A stretch of 64,000 bases of DNA from Actinomycetes bacterium. Lineage in GTDB: Bacteria > Actinomycetota > Actinomycetes > S36-B12. The notes under the pieces were generated by a model, which was given only the letters and a program-made list of their open reading frames with translations, had not been told where the DNA came from and did no database searches. Below, one piece after another: positions 23,533 through 30,736 of the stretch. How positions within the stretch are numbered: position 1 is the stretch's first letter; every line of letters begins with the position of its first letter. The DNA lies in assembly GCA_024641635.1 (NCBI GenBank), contig JAHECS010000013.1, positions 9,482-73,481 on the forward strand, in the 5' to 3' direction. The translations under genes were made by a program, and so were the position numbers.

Positions 23533-24039
23533 ATGCCCGAGACCCGTACGCACGCCGATAGGCCAGGCGAGAGGGCCGGACGCCCGCAGCTGACCCGTGA
23601 GGGGTACGCCAAGCTCGCGGACCGCGTGGTGGACATCCGCGATCGCCGGCTGTCGGACATCCGTCCGCTGCTCGTGGAGAGCGAGCGGGACGAGCGGGTG
23701 GTGGCCGAGTTCGAGCGCCTGCTGCAGGAGGCGACGGGAATCGAGTCACTCCTGGCGCAGGCGGAGATCATCGGCATCGATCCGGTCGCGGTCGATGGCC
23801 GGGTGGATCTCGGCATGCGTGTGCAGGTCGTCCTCGAGGATGACAAGGCCGAGTGGGTCCGTCCGGTGCATCCGGACGAGGCGTTCCTCGACGACGAGCG
23901 CATCTCCGCTACGTCGCCGCTCGCCATTGCCCTCGTGGGCGCACGCAAGGGCCACACCGTGTGGGTGGATGCCCCGACGGGCGCCTGGCCCTGCCAGGTG
24001 CTCGACGTGGCTCTCGACGGCGTCGAGCTCGAGGGCTAG
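23533..24039 (+). CDS. GreA/GreB-family elongation-factor-like protein
   Basis: SD GAGGAGG upstream. The C-terminal GreA/B FKBP-like domain pattern is ..ISATSPLAIALVGARKGHTV... Confidence 0.7.
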   Translation: MPETRTHADRPGERAGRPQLTREGYAKLADRVVDIRDRRLSDIRPLLVESERDERVVAEFERLLQEATGIESLLAQAEIIGIDPVAVDGRVDLGMRVQVVLEDDKAEWVRPVHPDEAFLDDERISATSPLAIALVGARKGHTVWVDAPTGAWPCQVLDVALDGVELEG

Positions 24040-24041
24040 CG

Positions 24042-24332
24042 ATGCCGCGCTCGTCACCTGACGGGGGTGGCTGGACCTTCCTGTCCAACCACGGTCACGT
24101 GCTGGTCGCCCTCAGGGACGAGCCTGACTCCAGGCTGAGCGAGCTGGCGGCTCGGGTGGGCATCAGCCAACGTGCGGTCCAGCTCATCGTCCGGGACCTC
24201 GAGAAGGCCGGGTATGTCGTGCGCGAGCGGTGCGGGCGCCGCAACCACTACACGGTGACGGAGGGCCAACGCCTGAGGCACCCGGCCGAGAGGGAGTCGT
24301 CGGTGGACGACCTCCTGTCCGTCTTCGGCTGA
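24042..24332 (+). CDS. Small winged-helix (MarR/ArsR-like) transcriptional regulator
   Basis: Starts 2 nt after the upstream stop. HTH ..LSELAARVGISQRAVQLIVRDLEKAGYV.. Confidence 0.6.
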   Translation: MPRSSPDGGGWTFLSNHGHVLVALRDEPDSRLSELAARVGISQRAVQLIVRDLEKAGYVVRERCGRRNHYTVTEGQRLRHPAERESSVDDLLSVFG

Positions 24333-24442
24333 CGGCGCGGCCCGGCCCCGCCTGTCCCCACGTCCGCGGCTCGCTGGGCGGTCCTCCACACGCGCGTCCA
24401 CGGTCGTGGCAGTGGACCGGGCGCCGCATGAGGGTCTGCTCC

Positions 24443-25480
24443 ATGACCACCGCCCCCGGACTCCTGTCCCTGCGCAGCCCCAGTGCCCTCGTGGCCGCCC
24501 TCCCGTACCTGCTGGGCTTCCACCCGGCCGACAGCGCGGTCCTCGTGTGGGTGAGCCAGGGCCGCATCCTGCTGACTCAGCGGATGGACCTGCCGGACAA
24601 GCCCGCACTCCTCCCGGCATGGGTCGAGGTCGCATTCGGCCACGACGGTGCACGCCAGGCCGACAGCGTCGTCGTCGCCATGGTGACCGACGATCCTCCC
24701 GTCGCCGCGGTCGTCGACGCACTCCTCGTGCGTGCGGACCACGCCGGCATCGAGGTCCGTGACGTGCTGCACGTACGCGAGGACCGCTGGCGCAGCCTGC
24801 TCTGCGCCGACCCGTCGTGCTGTCCGCGCGAGGGGCGCGCCGTACCACTCTCGACCAGTGACGCCGTGGCGGCCGAGTTCGCGCTCGAGGGTTTCGCGCC
24901 GCTCGCCGCGCGTGGGGACGTCGAGGCCTCGTTCGACGCCGACGAGGAGGCCGTCAGGCTCGTGACGGAGGTGCCGCTCCCACACGTTCACGACCGCGAC
25001 CGCGAGGCGTGGCGCGACGCGCGCGTCTCGCAGACCCTGTCCCTGCTCGTGGACGATCCCGGTCCGTCGTCGGACGCACGGGTGGCGGCCCTCGTCCTGT
25101 CGGGTCTGGCCGACATCCGGGTCAGGGACACCGTGCTCTGGGAGCTCGCGCGTTGGCCGGACGCCACGCTCGCCAGTGCGCTGGGCCGTCTCGTGGACCT
25201 GGTCCGCGCCGCCCCCGCCGGCAGGGTCGCCCCGGTCGCCGCGGTCACGGCGGTCGTCGCGTGGCTGCTCGGCGACGGAGCCCGCGCAGGAATCTCCCTG
25301 CAGCGGGCGCTGGCCGATGATGCGGCGTACTCCCTCGCCGGGCTGCTGGCCGCATCACTGCAGGCGGGACTCGCGCCGGGCCATTGGCGCGCGTCCATGG
25401 CCGAGCTGACGCGTGACGAATGCCGTCACGGAGCCCGGCCCGCCCGTGGGGGGCGGCCCGGTGAGCCGTCCGTGGGGTGA
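24443..25480 (+). CDS. DUF4192 family protein
   Basis: N-terminal ..SPSALVAALPYLLGFHPADSAVLVW.. is characteristic of the actinobacterial DUF4192 family. An alternative start is at 24428. Confidence 0.65.
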   Translation: MTTAPGLLSLRSPSALVAALPYLLGFHPADSAVLVWVSQGRILLTQRMDLPDKPALLPAWVEVAFGHDGARQADSVVVAMVTDDPPVAAVVDALLVRADHAGIEVRDVLHVREDRWRSLLCADPSCCPREGRAVPLSTSDAVAAEFALEGFAPLAARGDVEASFDADEEAVRLVTEVPLPHVHDRDREAWRDARVSQTLSLLVDDPGPSSDARVAALVLSGLADIRVRDTVLWELARWPDATLASALGRLVDLVRAAPAGRVAPVAAVTAVVAWLLGDGARAGISLQRALADDAAYSLAGLLAASLQAGLAPGHWRASMAELTRDECRHGARPARGGRPGEPSVG

Positions 25481-25481
25481 C

Positions 25482-25511
25482 TTGTCGGAGGTCGGCCCTC
25501 ACCGCTATATT
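25482..25511 (+). promoter_or_regulatory. Candidate promoter of the metY-metX leader
   Basis: TTGTCG (25482-25487) - N18 - TATATT (25506-25511). This places a TSS about 7 nt downstream, right at the first G of the SAM-IV aptamer. Confidence 0.4.
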
Positions 25512-25518
25512 CCCCGCA

Positions 25519-25624
25519 GGTCAAGAGTTCCAGTGCATAGCTCCGGCTTGCTGGACGGCAACCCTCCACCGCGGTGGGGTGCTCCGGATGAAGACCTGGC
25601 CCGGAAACCGGGCAAGCGCGGGTC
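25519..25624 (+). promoter_or_regulatory. SAM-IV riboswitch aptamer
   Basis: GGUCAAGAGUUCCAGUGCAUAGCUCCGGCUUGCUGGACGGCAACCCUCCACCGCGGUGGGGUGCUCCGGAUGAAGACC..GGCAAGCGCGGGUC. It aligns nearly base for base with the mycobacterial SAM-IV sequence I recall. It sits upstream of metY/metX, the usual context. Confidence 0.85.
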
Positions 25625-25664
25625 TTGCACAGGGCAGGACCCCGGAGAGTGTGCGAGGTCTGAC

Positions 25665-25697
25665 ATGTGCTGTTGTTGTCGAATGACCCGGCGCTGA
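25665..25697 (+). CDS. Polycysteine leader peptide uORF (MCCCCRMTRR)
   Basis: ATG TGC TGT TGT TGT CGA ATG ACC CGG CGC TGA. GAGG (25655-25658) lies 6 nt upstream. It sits between the SAM-IV aptamer and metY. Confidence 0.5.
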   Translation: MCCCCRMTRR

Positions 25698-25849
25698 CGT
25701 TCGCCGTCGAGAGGCGGCCGTCGGCGCTCCGGCACCGGTAATCCCCGTGCCTGTCGCCCTGCGGGGGCGACGCATTGATCCCAGCCCCACCATCCAGCTC
25801 CACCATCCAGCGCCCGTTGCGGCGCACCCGAACTGACAGAGGAGTCCCC

Positions 25850-27166
25850 ATGAGCACCGCCTGGTCCTTCGAGACGAAGCAGATCCACGCCGGCCAGTCG
25901 CCGGACGGCACCACCAACGCGCGAGCACTGCCGATCTACCAGACGACGTCGTACACCTTCAATGACACGACGCACGCCGCCAACCTGTTCGGGCTCAAGG
26001 AGCTCGGCAACATCTACACCCGGATCATGAACCCCACGCAGGCAGTGGTCGAGGACCGGATCGCCGCGCTCGAGGGCGGGGTCGCGGGTCTCCTGGTGGC
26101 CAGTGGCCAGGCCGCGGAGACGCTCGCCATCCTGAACATCGCCGAGGCGGGGGACCACATCGTCTCCAGCCCGAGCCTCTACGGCGGCACCTACAACCTG
26201 TTCCACTACACGCTGCCGAAGCTGGGCATCGAGTGCTCGTTCGTCGACAACCCCGACGACCCCGAGTCCTGGCGCGCCGCCGTGCGACCCAACACCAAGC
26301 TGTTCTTCGGCGAGTCGATCGCCAACCCGCGCAACGACCTGCTCGACATCGAGGCGGTCGCGACGGTGGCGCACGAGGTGGGCGTGCCGCTGATCGTGGA
26401 CAACACGGTGGCCACCCCGTACCTCATCCGGCCGCTCGAGTGGGGCGCCGACATCGTCGTCCACTCCGCGACCAAGTACCTCGGAGGGCATGGCACAGCG
26501 GTGGCCGGCGCGATCGTCGACGGTGGGACCTTCGACTATGCCCAGTACCCGGAGCGGTACCCGAACTACAACGAGCCCGATCCCAGCTACCACGGACTCG
26601 TGTACGCCCGGGACCTGGGCGTCGGGTCGGCGTTCGGGGCCAACCTGTCGTTCATCCTCAAGGCCCGGGTCCAGCTCCTGCGCGATCTTGGTGCTGCGGT
26701 GTCGCCGTTCAACGCCTTCCTCATCGCCCAGGGCATCGAGACGCTCTCGCTGCGAATCGAGCGGCACGTCCAGAACGCCAAGGCGGTCGCCGACTTCCTG
26801 GTCGGGCGCGAGGAGGTCGAGTCGGTCAACTACTCGGGACTCGCCTCGAGCCCGTGGTACGAGCTCGGCCGCAAGTACGCGCCTCTCGGGACCGGGGCGG
26901 TCCTCAGCTTCGAGATCGTCGGCGGTGTCGACGCCGGACGTGCCTTCGTCGAGGCCCTCGAGCTGCACAGCCACGTGGCGAACATCGGAGACGTGCGCAG
27001 CCTCGTCATCCATCCCGCCTCGACCACGCACTCCCAGCTCTCCCCCGAGGAGCAGGCAGCGGCGGGAGTGACCCCGGGGCTGGTGCGCCTCGCTGTGGGC
27101 ATCGAGAGCATCGACGACATCCTCGCCGACCTCGACGCGGGTTTCCGGGCCGCCAAGCAGGGCTGA
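25850..27166 (+). CDS. metY: O-acetylhomoserine aminocarboxypropyltransferase (sulfhydrylase)
   Basis: SD GAGGAG upstream. ..ETKQIHAGQ..YQTTSY..HSATKYLGGHG.. (PLP-lysine motif). Confidence 0.9.
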   Translation: MSTAWSFETKQIHAGQSPDGTTNARALPIYQTTSYTFNDTTHAANLFGLKELGNIYTRIMNPTQAVVEDRIAALEGGVAGLLVASGQAAETLAILNIAEAGDHIVSSPSLYGGTYNLFHYTLPKLGIECSFVDNPDDPESWRAAVRPNTKLFFGESIANPRNDLLDIEAVATVAHEVGVPLIVDNTVATPYLIRPLEWGADIVVHSATKYLGGHGTAVAGAIVDGGTFDYAQYPERYPNYNEPDPSYHGLVYARDLGVGSAFGANLSFILKARVQLLRDLGAAVSPFNAFLIAQGIETLSLRIERHVQNAKAVADFLVGREEVESVNYSGLASSPWYELGRKYAPLGTGAVLSFEIVGGVDAGRAFVEALELHSHVANIGDVRSLVIHPASTTHSQLSPEEQAAAGVTPGLVRLAVGIESIDDILADLDAGFRAAKQG

Positions 27167-27168
27167 TC

Positions 27169-28341
27169 GTGGCCGACTACGGGCCGCTCTCCTACGAGGG
27201 TCTTCCTCCCGCCAGTTCCGCCTGGCGGGAGGGAGACCCCGTGGGCGAGCGGCACTTCGTCGACGTGGGGAACTTGACCACGGAACTGGGTGCAGCCATC
27301 CCCGACGTGCGGGTCGCGTACCAGACCTGGGGCAGGCTCAACGAGGACCGTTCGAACGCCGTCTACATCTGCCACGCCCTCACGGGAGACGCGCACGTGG
27401 CCGGTTCGGCCGGGCAGGGCCATGCGACCGACGGGTGGTGGCACGGACTCGTCGGCCCGGGCAGCGCCGTGGACACCGACGAGTGGTTCGTCGTCTGCGC
27501 CAACGTCCTCGGTGGCTGCCAGGGCACCACGGGACCGTCCTCGACCGCTCCCGACGGTCGGCCGTGGGGCAGTCGGTTCCCGGTGATCACGGTCGGCGAC
27601 ATGGTCGAGGTCGAGCACCGGCTGACCGATGTCCTCGGGATCGACTCATGGGCGCTCATGCTGGGGCCGTCGCTGGGGGGCATGCGCGTGCTCGAGTGGA
27701 TGGTCCGCTTCCCCGAGCGGGTTCGGGGCGGTCTCGTGCTGGGGTCCACCGCCGCCGTCACCGCCGATCAGATCGGCACGCACGCCACTCAGATCGCGGC
27801 CATCGAGGGCGATCCCGGATACCGCGGCGGCGACTACTACGACGCACGCGCCGGCGAGGGCCCCCATCGCGGCATGGGCCTGGCCCGCCGCATCGCGCAC
27901 CTCACCTACCGGTGCGAGACGGAGCTCGATCTCCGTTTCGGGCGTGATGCCCAGGACGGCGAGGATCCCTACGACGGTGGTCGGTTCGCCGTCGAGTCCT
28001 ACCTCGATCACCACGCCGACAAGCTCGCACGCCGTTTCGACGCCAACACCTACGTCGTGCTCACGCGCGCCATGAGCCTGTTCGATCTCGGCCGCGGCCG
28101 CGGCGGCGTGGCGGCCGCGCTCGGCGGCATCGACGCGCCCTTGACCGTGGTGGGCATCGACTCGGATCGCCTGTTCCCCGTTCGGCTCCAGCAGGAGATC
28201 GTCGAGCTGGCGCCCGGGGCGGACCGTCTGCACCTGCTCCTGTCGCCGTATGGGCACGACGGCTTCCTGGTCGAGGACGAGCAGGTGGGCGTCTTCGTGG
28301 CGCACGCCCTCCATCGGGTCCGCCGCAGCGATCCGCGCTGA
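27169..28341 (+). CDS. metX: Homoserine O-acetyltransferase
   Basis: GTG start 2 nt after the metY stop. ..NAVYICHALTGDAH..GPSLGGM.. (nucleophile elbow) ..GHDGFL.. Confidence 0.9.
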   Translation: MADYGPLSYEGLPPASSAWREGDPVGERHFVDVGNLTTELGAAIPDVRVAYQTWGRLNEDRSNAVYICHALTGDAHVAGSAGQGHATDGWWHGLVGPGSAVDTDEWFVVCANVLGGCQGTTGPSSTAPDGRPWGSRFPVITVGDMVEVEHRLTDVLGIDSWALMLGPSLGGMRVLEWMVRFPERVRGGLVLGSTAAVTADQIGTHATQIAAIEGDPGYRGGDYYDARAGEGPHRGMGLARRIAHLTYRCETELDLRFGRDAQDGEDPYDGGRFAVESYLDHHADKLARRFDANTYVVLTRAMSLFDLGRGRGGVAAALGGIDAPLTVVGIDSDRLFPVRLQQEIVELAPGADRLHLLLSPYGHDGFLVEDEQVGVFVAHALHRVRRSDPR

Positions 28342-29254: not shown

Positions 29255-29338
29255 AGGAGATTCATGGCCCGTTCGCAAGCCGCAGGCTTGACACGGGCCC
29301 TTGTCGTGGGACAACGCGAGGAAGGCATCCCCCACTCG

Positions 29339-30736
<1,398 letters not shown>

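Follow-up and report, generated by a model that had tools for sequence, protein, structure and literature searches.

A metY-metX leader of an actinomycete that joins a SAM-IV riboswitch aptamer to a short upstream reading frame rich in cysteine codons

Described systems that resemble the metY-metX leader

Leaders in which a ligand-binding RNA or a translating ribosome governs a downstream operon have been described in several bacteria, and here we compare them with the leader of the metY-metX operon of an Actinomycetes bacterium (S36-B12; contig JAHECS010000013.1). All coordinates are those of the window, the 64,000-nucleotide (nt) stretch of DNA analysed as a whole. This leader carries an aptamer of the SAM-IV (S-adenosylmethionine, SAM) riboswitch class followed by a short upstream open reading frame (uORF) with four successive Cys codons. 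On balance we favor a two-input reading of this composite leader, in which the SAM-IV expression platform acts on the Cys-codon uORF and not on metY. Because the platform would act on the uORF, the operon could then respond both to SAM and to the translation of Cys (perhaps also Met) codons.

Polycysteine leaderless short ORFs (sORFs) are Cys-responsive attenuators in Mycobacterium smegmatis, as established by experiment (Canestrari et al. 2020, bioRxiv 10.1101/834739). Attenuation in that system involves stalling at Cys codons, and the presence of at least two consecutive Cys codons predicted the Cys-responsive loci of M. smegmatis (bioRxiv 10.1101/834739). The window uORF resembles these mycobacterial sORFs (NF042933, NF042934 and NF042936) in that it is a short ORF with consecutive Cys codons 5′ of a sulfur-metabolism operon, and leaderless versions found at the same locus in relatives match NF042934. 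There are also differences. The mycobacterial sORFs are leaderless, whereas the window uORF is led by a Shine-Dalgarno (SD) sequence, with its AUG 146 nt into the predicted transcript, and it therefore lacks one defining feature of the published family. It has only 10 codons and is without the N-terminal RRxVDxxRV part, and no conserved counterpart of the Cys-tract:SD duplex of Ms5788A was found in metY leaders.

Riboswitches that control a uORF are a recent theme in Actinobacteria. In M. tuberculosis, the Mbox riboswitch controls the uORF rv1805A together with Rho (PMC12810186), and the B12 riboswitch acts at the ppe2 and metE uORFs (PMC11260477). These leaders, like the window leader as we read it, combine an aptamer with a translational platform for a small uORF instead of the main gene, and the leader downstream is C-rich, without an intrinsic terminator and consistent with Rho. 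They belong to other ligands and aptamer classes, and their uORFs have not been described as amino-acid sensors, whereas the window uORF is best assigned to a Cys-sensing sORF type. The window would bring to this theme a uORF that could plausibly sense a metabolite in its own right (Cys-tRNA, perhaps Met-tRNA) and so supply a second input.

In Salmonella, the mgtA/mgtL, corA and mgtC leaders combine responses to ions with uORFs whose amino-acid codons matter and with Rho; the mgtA leader is Mg2+-responsive, its uORF mgtL is read through its proline codons, and the output is Rho-dependent (PMC12360218). The likeness to the window lies in a structured, ligand-responsive RNA and a uORF rich in the codons of one amino acid within a single leader, and in mgtA it is the position of the ribosome that decides the downstream stem-loop. 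The two leaders are not homologous. In the window the uORF comes after the aptamer and not within the sensing region, the inputs would be SAM and Cys as opposed to Mg2+ and Pro, and Rho is a presumed factor. The preliminary description of this locus knew of no riboswitch-to-leader-peptide tandem of this kind. For the specific pairing this holds, in that the literature searched links no SAM-IV or other SAM riboswitch to a Cys leader ORF and contains no metY leader sORF; as a general claim it is too broad, since riboswitch-controlled uORFs had already been described (PMC11260477, PMC12810186; cf. mgtA, PMC12360218). Judged by sequence, SAM-IV plus a Cys leader is not a new category, but an arrangement with at least 26 members and with natural relatives that have only one of the two modules.

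Two further comparisons concern the order of the sensors and the aptamer itself. Tandem riboswitches, such as the SAM and adenosylcobalamin (AdoCbl) riboswitches on metE of Bacillus clausii, make a two-input leader and can act as a NOR gate. Like the window, the Bacillus leader places one sensor after another on the mRNA of a methionine-pathway gene, and the metabolites sensed are related; unlike it, the second sensor of the window would be a ribosome on a leader peptide, and the first appears to gate the second and not to work in parallel with it. With the minimal SAM-IV (RF00634) switches 5′ of metY the window shares a full-length aptamer at the 5′ end of the transcript and the same platform of aptamer tail plus hairpin. 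It differs from such ordinary SAM-IV-metY leaders in that its platform faces a 10-codon uORF, with a gap to metY of 225 nt compared with 31-118 nt in leaders that have no sORF. The structure of SAM-IV is well known and its expression platform hardly characterised; our data suggest a competition of tail plus hairpin with a sequestrator, and suggest that the platform can point at a leader ORF instead of the gene. If the two-input reading is true, a single leader would weigh SAM, the end product, against how much of the competing sulfur amino acid is available, and would do so at the enzyme through which sulfide enters homocysteine.

The composite leader and its relatives 5′ of metY

The aptamer was located with Rfam. 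In a cmscan of the whole window, SAM-IV was the sole match, and it spans the complete model (positions 1-116 of 116; 104.9 bits vs a gathering score of 38, E = 3e-18). The use of this model (RF00634) to settle the borders had been suggested earlier, and it fixes the aptamer (P1, P2a/b, P3, P5, PK-1 and PK-2) at 25519..25624 on the plus strand; metY starts at 25850, so that the distance of about 225 nt given in the preliminary description is confirmed. A relaxed scan (E ≤ 5) of 25450-25900 gave nothing credible beyond SAM-IV. With the topology taken from PMC6890682, the 3′ strand of PK-2 falls at ~25617-25621 (CGCGG). A consensus scan found one promoter-like site (25482..25511, plus strand; -35 TTGTCG, 18-nt spacer, -10 TATATT) where 0.0 were expected from shuffles. 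This sigma-70-like promoter ends 7 nt before the aptamer, and in nearly all of the other leaders described below a promoter pattern (-35 TTGnnn, -10 TAtAgT) stands 7-8 nt 5′ of the first G of the aptamer. Because of the position of the promoter, transcription probably starts at or next to this G (~25518-25519). In a placement test the element was found in the 5′ leader of a Met/SAM gene pair, metY-metX, and at the predicted transcription start. As far as its sequence tells, this is an ordinary full-length SAM-IV aptamer at the start of the transcript, presumed to bind SAM and to repress the downstream gene.

An SD-led uORF had been noted as the first translatable element after the aptamer, 30-40 nt downstream, in good agreement with the distances we found: the SD (GAGGUC, 25655..25660, plus strand) begins 31 nt and the ATG 41 nt past the aptamer end. 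The SD stands 4 nt before the AUG, or 6 nt if counted from its GAGG core. The uORF (25665..25697, plus strand) has 10 codons and a stop, ATG TGC TGT TGT TGT CGA ATG ACC CGG CGC TGA, encoding MCCCCRMTRR. Its start ATG is at 25665-25667, the four successive Cys codons are at 25668-25679, an internal ATG is at 25683-85 and the stop TGA is at 25695-25697. A 4-codon ORF, GTG TGC GAG GTC TGA (25651-25665), overlaps the uORF SD; it is absent from related leaders and probably meaningless.

The leaders compared here come from 80 metY loci of GTDB genomes (MetY 74-92% identical) and from a few metagenome contigs. The metagenome pattern, GCGCGGGTCTTGC N{15,45} GAGGTC, returned 120 stretches that were mostly chance matches; 8 were composite leaders. 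SAM-IV lies 5′ of metY at 48 of the 80 loci. Thirty of these have a short leader, in which the metY match follows the end of the aptamer after 31-118 nt, and no SD-led Cys-containing sORF was found in any of the 30. At 17 of the 48 the aptamer is followed by a proximal uORF that starts 41-46 nt past the aptamer tail, in leaders of 155-371 nt (~107 nt at locus L080), one more locus (L040) has a distal uORF, and the 8 metagenome contigs likewise have a composite SAM-IV plus uORF leader. In 25 of the 26 composite leaders compared, the uORF SD lies 31-37 nt past the tail.

Across these 26 leaders the uORF behaves as a conserved, in-frame, SD-led reading frame. Leaders from different genomes and metagenomes retain its start codon and SD, its frame, the run of Cys codons and the context of the stop, the GAGGTC form of the SD is kept in 21 of the 26, and the spacing from ATG to CGAATG is 12, 15 or 18 nt, which means that indels come in multiples of three. 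The uORFs range from 5 to 22 codons, their Cys lies within codons 2-5, at least two consecutive Cys occur in 20 of the 26, and metY is always downstream. Peptides found elsewhere include MSCCPRMHRR, MRCCCRMSRR, MCCCRMTTR, MSCCRMPRF, MCCCCSC, MKCCHRLSI, MRSCRMHTR and MRSCR. The comparison of metY leaders for joint conservation of aptamer and Cys-rich uORF, which the preliminary description had proposed, thus found both together in 26 leaders. An ORF of only 10 codons in a long structured leader could be a functionless product of chance, but the retention of all of these features with indels in threes, and the absence of such an ORF from all 30 short SAM-IV leaders, make this explanation scarcely credible.

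The codon usage of the uORFs is distinctive. Cys makes up 26% of uORF residues vs 0.05% in MetY, and 58 of the 66 Cys codons are UGU (TGT:TGC is 58:8, vs 9:70 in the long ORFs of the window). CGA accounts for 17 of 56 uORF Arg codons, each time as CGA-ATG. The uORFs thus strongly favor the rare codons UGU and CGA, in genomes with a third-position GC of mostly about 0.8-0.97. Right after the Cys run, the codon nearly always begins with C, whatever residue it encodes (CGA, CGG, CCG, CAC, CUG or CCA). The uORF motif GUUGUCG is complementary to the invariant CGGCAAC of the aptamer (25556-62). At L080:2236-2415, in a metagenome-assembled genome (MAG) of Mycobacterium sp., SAM-IV is followed by GGAGGTCcggc GTG CGC AGT TGT CGC TGA, a mini-uORF of 5 codons (M-R-S-C-R) in which the nucleotides GUUGUCG are preserved; this locus is a possible entry to mycobacterial experiments.

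Relatives without SAM-IV have Cys sORFs of two types 5′ of metY. Five loci (L007, L015, L017, L018 and L023; MetY 83-86% identical) carry a long, apparently leaderless sORF of 34-36 codons, about 190-350 nt 5′ of metY (whose start is locus position 2501), with the peptide MRPRVNLVSRRxVDxRRVASQMCR...RMPxxx. The long sORFs of L015, L018 and L023 pass the NCBIfam model NF042934, "putative leader peptide" (29.4-30.7 bits, cutoff 27); L007 (19.8) and L017 (25.3) score below the cutoff. The Ms4527A Cys-leader model was matched below its cutoff by all five and the Ms5788A model by three. After the long leaderless sORFs stands a terminator-like hairpin, GGCCGGAGAG..CUCUCCGGCC plus UUCGUCGU, of which L011 has the variant MSSLQMCMCCRMISIVGA. 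At 13 further loci (L029, L030, L032, L034, L037, L038, L042, L062, L063, L071, L072, L075 and L079), in named Cellulomonas, Demequina, Actinotalea, Isoptericola and Sphaerisporangium genomes as well as MAGs, we found a tiny leaderless sORF of 7 codons, M-x-R-R-M-C-R/S (ATG TCC CGC CGA ATG TGT CGC TGA). It lies about 200-270 nt 5′ of metY, with a TAnnnT box 7 nt before the ATG, and is followed by overlapping alternative hairpins (GCGCACG..CGUGCGC vs GUGCGCCC..GGGCGC); no description of this M-x-R-R-M-C-R leader type was found in the literature searched. The leaderless look, a TAnnnT box 6-8 nt before the ATG, is shared by L015, L017, L018, L023 and the 13 tiny-sORF loci.

A core of AUG-UGU-CG and CGA-AUG is common to the uORFs, the long leaderless sORFs and the tiny ones, and TGT accounts for 13 of the 18 conserved Cys codons in the types without an aptamer. 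The reading that best fits these comparisons is that the uORF belongs to, or derives from, an actinobacterial type of Cys-sensing leader ORF and now stands behind a SAM-IV aptamer. Because Cys leader sORFs occur on their own at this position in riboswitch-less relatives, the uORF is credible as a Cys-responsive element. The four metY leader types of close relatives (a riboswitch alone, a riboswitch with the uORF, a long leaderless Cys sORF, or the tiny leaderless M-x-R-R-M-C-R sORF) offer a comparative and experimental system for the swapping of RNA and ribosome sensors.

There is another way to account for the Cys codons. The uORF could be a generic translated platform, like M. tuberculosis rv1805A or the ppe2 uORF, that sets Rho polarity, the Cys codons being a by-product of constraints on the RNA. 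Conservation of nucleotides does exceed that of amino acids, as seen in the C that begins the codon after the Cys run and in L080, which retains GUUGUCG as AGU-UGU-CGC. Codon 2 tracks the sequence of the platform hairpin described below, and GUUGUCG pairs with CGGCAAC of the aptamer in unconstrained minimum free energy (MFE) folds. However, the UGU preference and the M-C-R / CGA-AUG core recur in leaderless sORFs that have no aptamer to pair with, three of the leaderless sORFs pass the NCBIfam Cys-leader model, and the 20 uORFs with at least two consecutive Cys have the very feature that predicts Cys-responsive loci in M. smegmatis. We therefore consider a generic platform improbable.

The expression platform and the uORF initiation region

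The start codon of the uORF lies 41-46 nt from the aptamer tail, and that of metY in minimal SAM-IV riboswitches lies 35-63 nt from it. Because the uORF starts at the same distance from the tail as metY does in the minimal switches, its initiation region is likely the direct target of the expression platform. Two predicted structures would compete there. The first, found in MFE folds, is a platform hairpin (25620..25642, plus strand) in which GGGUCUUGC at 25620-28 and GCAGGACCC at 25634-42 enclose the loop ACAGG, and which we propose to act as an anti-sequestrator. Its stability is -15.3 kcal/mol as a duplex and -18.4 kcal/mol as a hairpin. Its positions pair in 98.7% of cells over the 26 leaders, with changes on both sides in 4 pairs, and none of 500 shuffles reaches its score; the RNAalifold consensus of the platform contains no other helix and leaves SD and AUG open.

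The second structure is a proposed sequestrator (25627..25670, plus strand), in which GCACA (25627-31) pairs with UGUGC (25666-70; AUG and codon 2) and GGACC (25637-41) with GGUCU (25657-61; SD). In platform-only folding it becomes the MFE structure once the aptamer tail is blocked, with SD, AUG and codon 2 buried. Blocking the tail lowers the mean probability that the SD is unpaired from 0.46 to 0.29 (p = 2.7e-4), and blocking 1-2 more nt lowers it to 0.22-0.23 (p about 1e-5). The sequestrator is paired in 82.7% of cells, compared with 14-56% when the register is slid. At 25629:25668 the pair is A-U in 13, G-C in 6 and G-U in 2 sequences, such that the hairpin sequence GCGCA goes with uORF codon 2 CGC and GCACA with UGC. 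Duplexes between hairpin and initiation region are more stable for cognate partners (mean -17.0 kcal/mol) than for non-cognate ones (-16.0 kcal/mol; permutation p = 0.008). The minimal SAM-IV-metY switches of low-GC relatives are laid out alike: once their tail is blocked, the C-run at the end of the hairpin pairs with GGGAGG of metY.

Based on these results we propose, with moderate support, how SAM would gate the uORF. Without SAM, the aptamer tail and the bases downstream of it would form the hairpin 25620-28:25634-42 and leave the uORF SD and AUG open. The aptamer 3′ end forms PK-2 with the P3 loop, as seen by cryo-electron microscopy (cryo-EM; PMC6890682), and the first two G of the hairpin overlap the 3′ strand of PK-2. 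With SAM bound, PK-2 would hold 25617-21 and the hairpin would lose its base. Its loop and 3′ strand (25627-41) would then be free to pair with SD, AUG and codon 2 (25657-70), and the uORF would remain untranslated.

The preliminary description had proposed a different helix for this step, in which 25621-31 (GGUCUUGCACA) pairs with 25650-60 (UGUGCGAGGUC) and occludes the SD when SAM is bound. The pairing as such was reproduced, with its 8 Watson-Crick and 3 G-U pairs: the 11 base pairs are contiguous, RNAduplex gives -11.7 kcal/mol, and a 6-bp core is present in most leaders. As the SD-occluding element it did not hold up. It loses its 5′ strand to the covarying platform hairpin, part of that strand is expected to be in PK-2 when SAM is bound, and the helix is absent from the inspected free-state and tail-blocked MFE structures. 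Over the 26 leaders 73.6% of its cells are paired with no covariation, and 448 of 500 shuffles equal it; only the invariant 6-bp core GGUCUU:GAGGUC is kept, half of it G-U, and the outer 5 pairs fail in 9-18 of the 26. The tail and SD strands seem complementary because both complement the 3′ strand of the hairpin. We therefore regard this helix as a very improbable switch. What stands of the earlier SAM-gated relay is the composite leader and, from conservation and position, a likely gating of the uORF.

Two other pairings seen in unconstrained MFE folds, of the P1 3′ strand (GAAGACC) with the SD and of CGGCAAC with GUUGUCG, were set aside: their flanks show no covariation and their cores are invariant. 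Through these pairings the uORF would be off when SAM is absent. Whole-leader folding as such gave no excess stability (z = -0.52 and -0.01).

Several results weigh against the gating we propose. The covariation of the sequestrator comes mainly from one pair, and its shuffle control is borderline (36/500). Tail-block modelling on the minimal SAM-IV switches was not significant (0.37 vs 0.32, p = 0.07). The platform hairpin shares no more than 2 nt with PK-2. Since cryo-EM found no large change between the apo and bound aptamer (PMC6890682), ligand control of the tail is an assumption. When the whole leader was folded with the aptamer forced or P1 forbidden, SD accessibility was the same (0.30 vs 0.30).

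If the gate were absent, the leader would consist of two independent regulators in series with no relay between them, SAM-IV turning expression off by its own route (e.g., Rho or leader folding) and the Cys sORF acting as a separate attenuator. The equal SD accessibility of both states in whole-leader folding fits such an arrangement, as does the occurrence of each module alone 5′ of metY in close relatives (SAM-IV at 30 loci, a leaderless Cys sORF at ~19). At L040:2090-2350, a Cys sORF, GTG TGT CGC CGA ATG TGT TGT CTC AGC TGA (MCRRMCCLS), lies ~100 nt beyond the SAM-IV aptamer. Because this sORF is ~100 nt and not ~40 nt past the aptamer, too distant for direct platform control, L040 suggests that aptamer and Cys sORF can also stand merely in series. 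In the composite leaders, however, the uORF SD is 31-37 nt past the tail in 25 of 26, which is where metY starts in the minimal switches. The hairpin loop and 3′ strand complement the uORF initiation region, with class-specific changes, and at the very place where the leaderless versions carry their promoter, the uORF has acquired an SD. For these reasons we consider two regulators without a relay rather unlikely for the window, and continue with the two-input reading in which SAM gates uORF translation.

From the uORF to metY and the neighboring genes

For the second input to matter, ribosome movement on the uORF would have to change the fate of the transcript. The uORF ends within a predicted hairpin, H1 (25690..25728, plus strand), whose 5′ arm GGCGCUGACG (25690-99), made up of the final two sense codons, the stop codon and adjoining bases, pairs with the 3′ arm CGUCGGCGCU (25719-28); an inner hairpin (25703-08:25713-18) is enclosed. 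In the MAFFT alignment the region after the uORF was too divergent for counting pairs by column, and per-sequence folds and an arm-shuffle test were used. Equivalents of H1 occur in 19 of the 26 leaders, defined as at least 5 of the last 9 uORF nt pairing 10-85 nt downstream (mostly 20-40), with arm sequences that differ (e.g., CCGCUGAG/CUCAGCGG, CUCCGCUGAUG/CGUCAGCGGAG and CCCUGGCG/CGCCAGGG). The arm-shuffle test gave modest support (mean z = -0.71, Wilcoxon p = 0.019 vs p = 0.80 for a control window). Two more hairpins (25731-35:25747-51 and 25753-60:25764-71; 25731..25771, plus strand) were predicted by MFE folding of the window alone.

Downstream of these hairpins is a C-rich, G-poor tract (25770..25829, plus strand; 30 C and 11 G in 60 nt) that is a candidate Rho-loading (rut) region. 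Pooled over the 26 leaders, the spacers between uORF and metY hold 1311 C and 889 G (C/G 1.47), and in all inspected leaders the sequence after H1 and the later hairpins is C-rich and not U-rich. Within the tract, 25781-25811 is a tandem repeat with a 13-nt unit (2.4 copies, consensus CCAGCCCCACCAT); other leaders share the C-richness and not the repeat. In M. tuberculosis leaders, Rho is the dominant mode for conditional terminators, and a C-rich spacer without a U-tract terminator fits Rho-dependent control. A trp-type attenuator with a 3:4 terminator was considered and rejected, as no U-tract is present and inspection by eye showed no repeat of the H1 5′ arm that is conserved.

The continuation of the proposed mechanism is more tentative. 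When SAM keeps the uORF untranslated, the leader might be shut off through its own folding or by Rho acting on the C-rich spacer. In the translated state of the uORF, transit over the four Cys codons might provide the second input by deciding whether the ribosome melts H1, which a ribosome at the stop codon would have to do. The Cys codons end 10 nt before H1. Given the size of the ribosome footprint, most of H1 would stay folded while a ribosome is stalled on the Cys codons.

There are at least two possibilities for the logic of such a leader. In one, stalling would relieve attenuation, as it does in mycobacteria, and the operon would be on only when SAM and Cys are both low. In the other, the ribosome must reach H1, such that Cys starvation would shut metY off and keep sulfide available for making cysteine. 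With its invariant CGA-AUG, the uORF may also read Met-tRNA. A broader scenario, which we consider speculative and on the whole unlikely, is a three-signal integrator of sulfur amino acids in which a SAM-IV aptamer was grafted onto an older ribosome-mediated attenuator, SAM gating initiation while slowly decoded UGU codons and the rare-Arg/Met pair CGA-AUG report the charging of Cys-tRNA and Met-tRNA. If this were true, the sister lineages with riboswitch-only and leader-peptide-only states would form a natural series of exchange and fusion.

This downstream half of the two-input reading also meets contrary results. No terminator-like site, and no U-tract, was found in 25300-26000. When a ribosome footprint was masked, whether over the Cys codons or over the stop, there was no convincing change at the metY initiation region or the C-tract; with a stalled ribosome, the unpaired probability of the metY initiation region rose from 0.48 to 0.57, and its partner was mostly trivial CAUG:CAUG pairing. 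No conserved pairing of the Cys tract with the metY SD, as in Ms5788A, was seen by eye or in an aggregate profile of the leaders. The logic in which the operon is on only at low SAM and low Cys is physiologically awkward.

Beyond the spacer, the metY SD (AGAGGAG, 25838..25844, plus strand) precedes metY (25850..27166, plus strand), which encodes an O-acetylhomoserine / O-acetylserine sulfhydrylase (NCBIfam NF005872, 812.7 bits, cutoff 703). An exact-sequence look-up of the window MetY gave no record. The second gene, metX (27169..28341, plus strand), has a GTG start and encodes a homoserine O-acetyltransferase (NCBIfam NF047917, 525.5 bits, cutoff 475). Because the metY stop (TGA, 27164-66) and the metX GTG (27169) are only 2 nt apart, translational coupling of metY and metX within the operon is suggested. 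MetY has 0-1 cysteine per ~438 residues, and the 26 metY genes have 5 Cys codons between them, all TGC. This scarcity looks like sulfur-sparing in an enzyme governed by a Cys-codon leader.

The neighboring ORFs were inspected as well. The 416-residue ORF at 24230-25480, just 5′ of the promoter, matched no NCBIfam model, and the 168-residue ORF upstream of it (23533-24039, plus strand) has weak, sub-threshold matches to two kinds of C-terminal domain, that of GreA/GreB and that of the nucleoside diphosphate kinase regulator. Downstream of the operon, the ORF at 29264-30736 (plus strand) has the region-2 to region-4 motifs of a principal sigma factor. Its N-terminus contains about ten KKAAPA repeats, and the same repeat also yields long spurious ORFs on the opposite strand.

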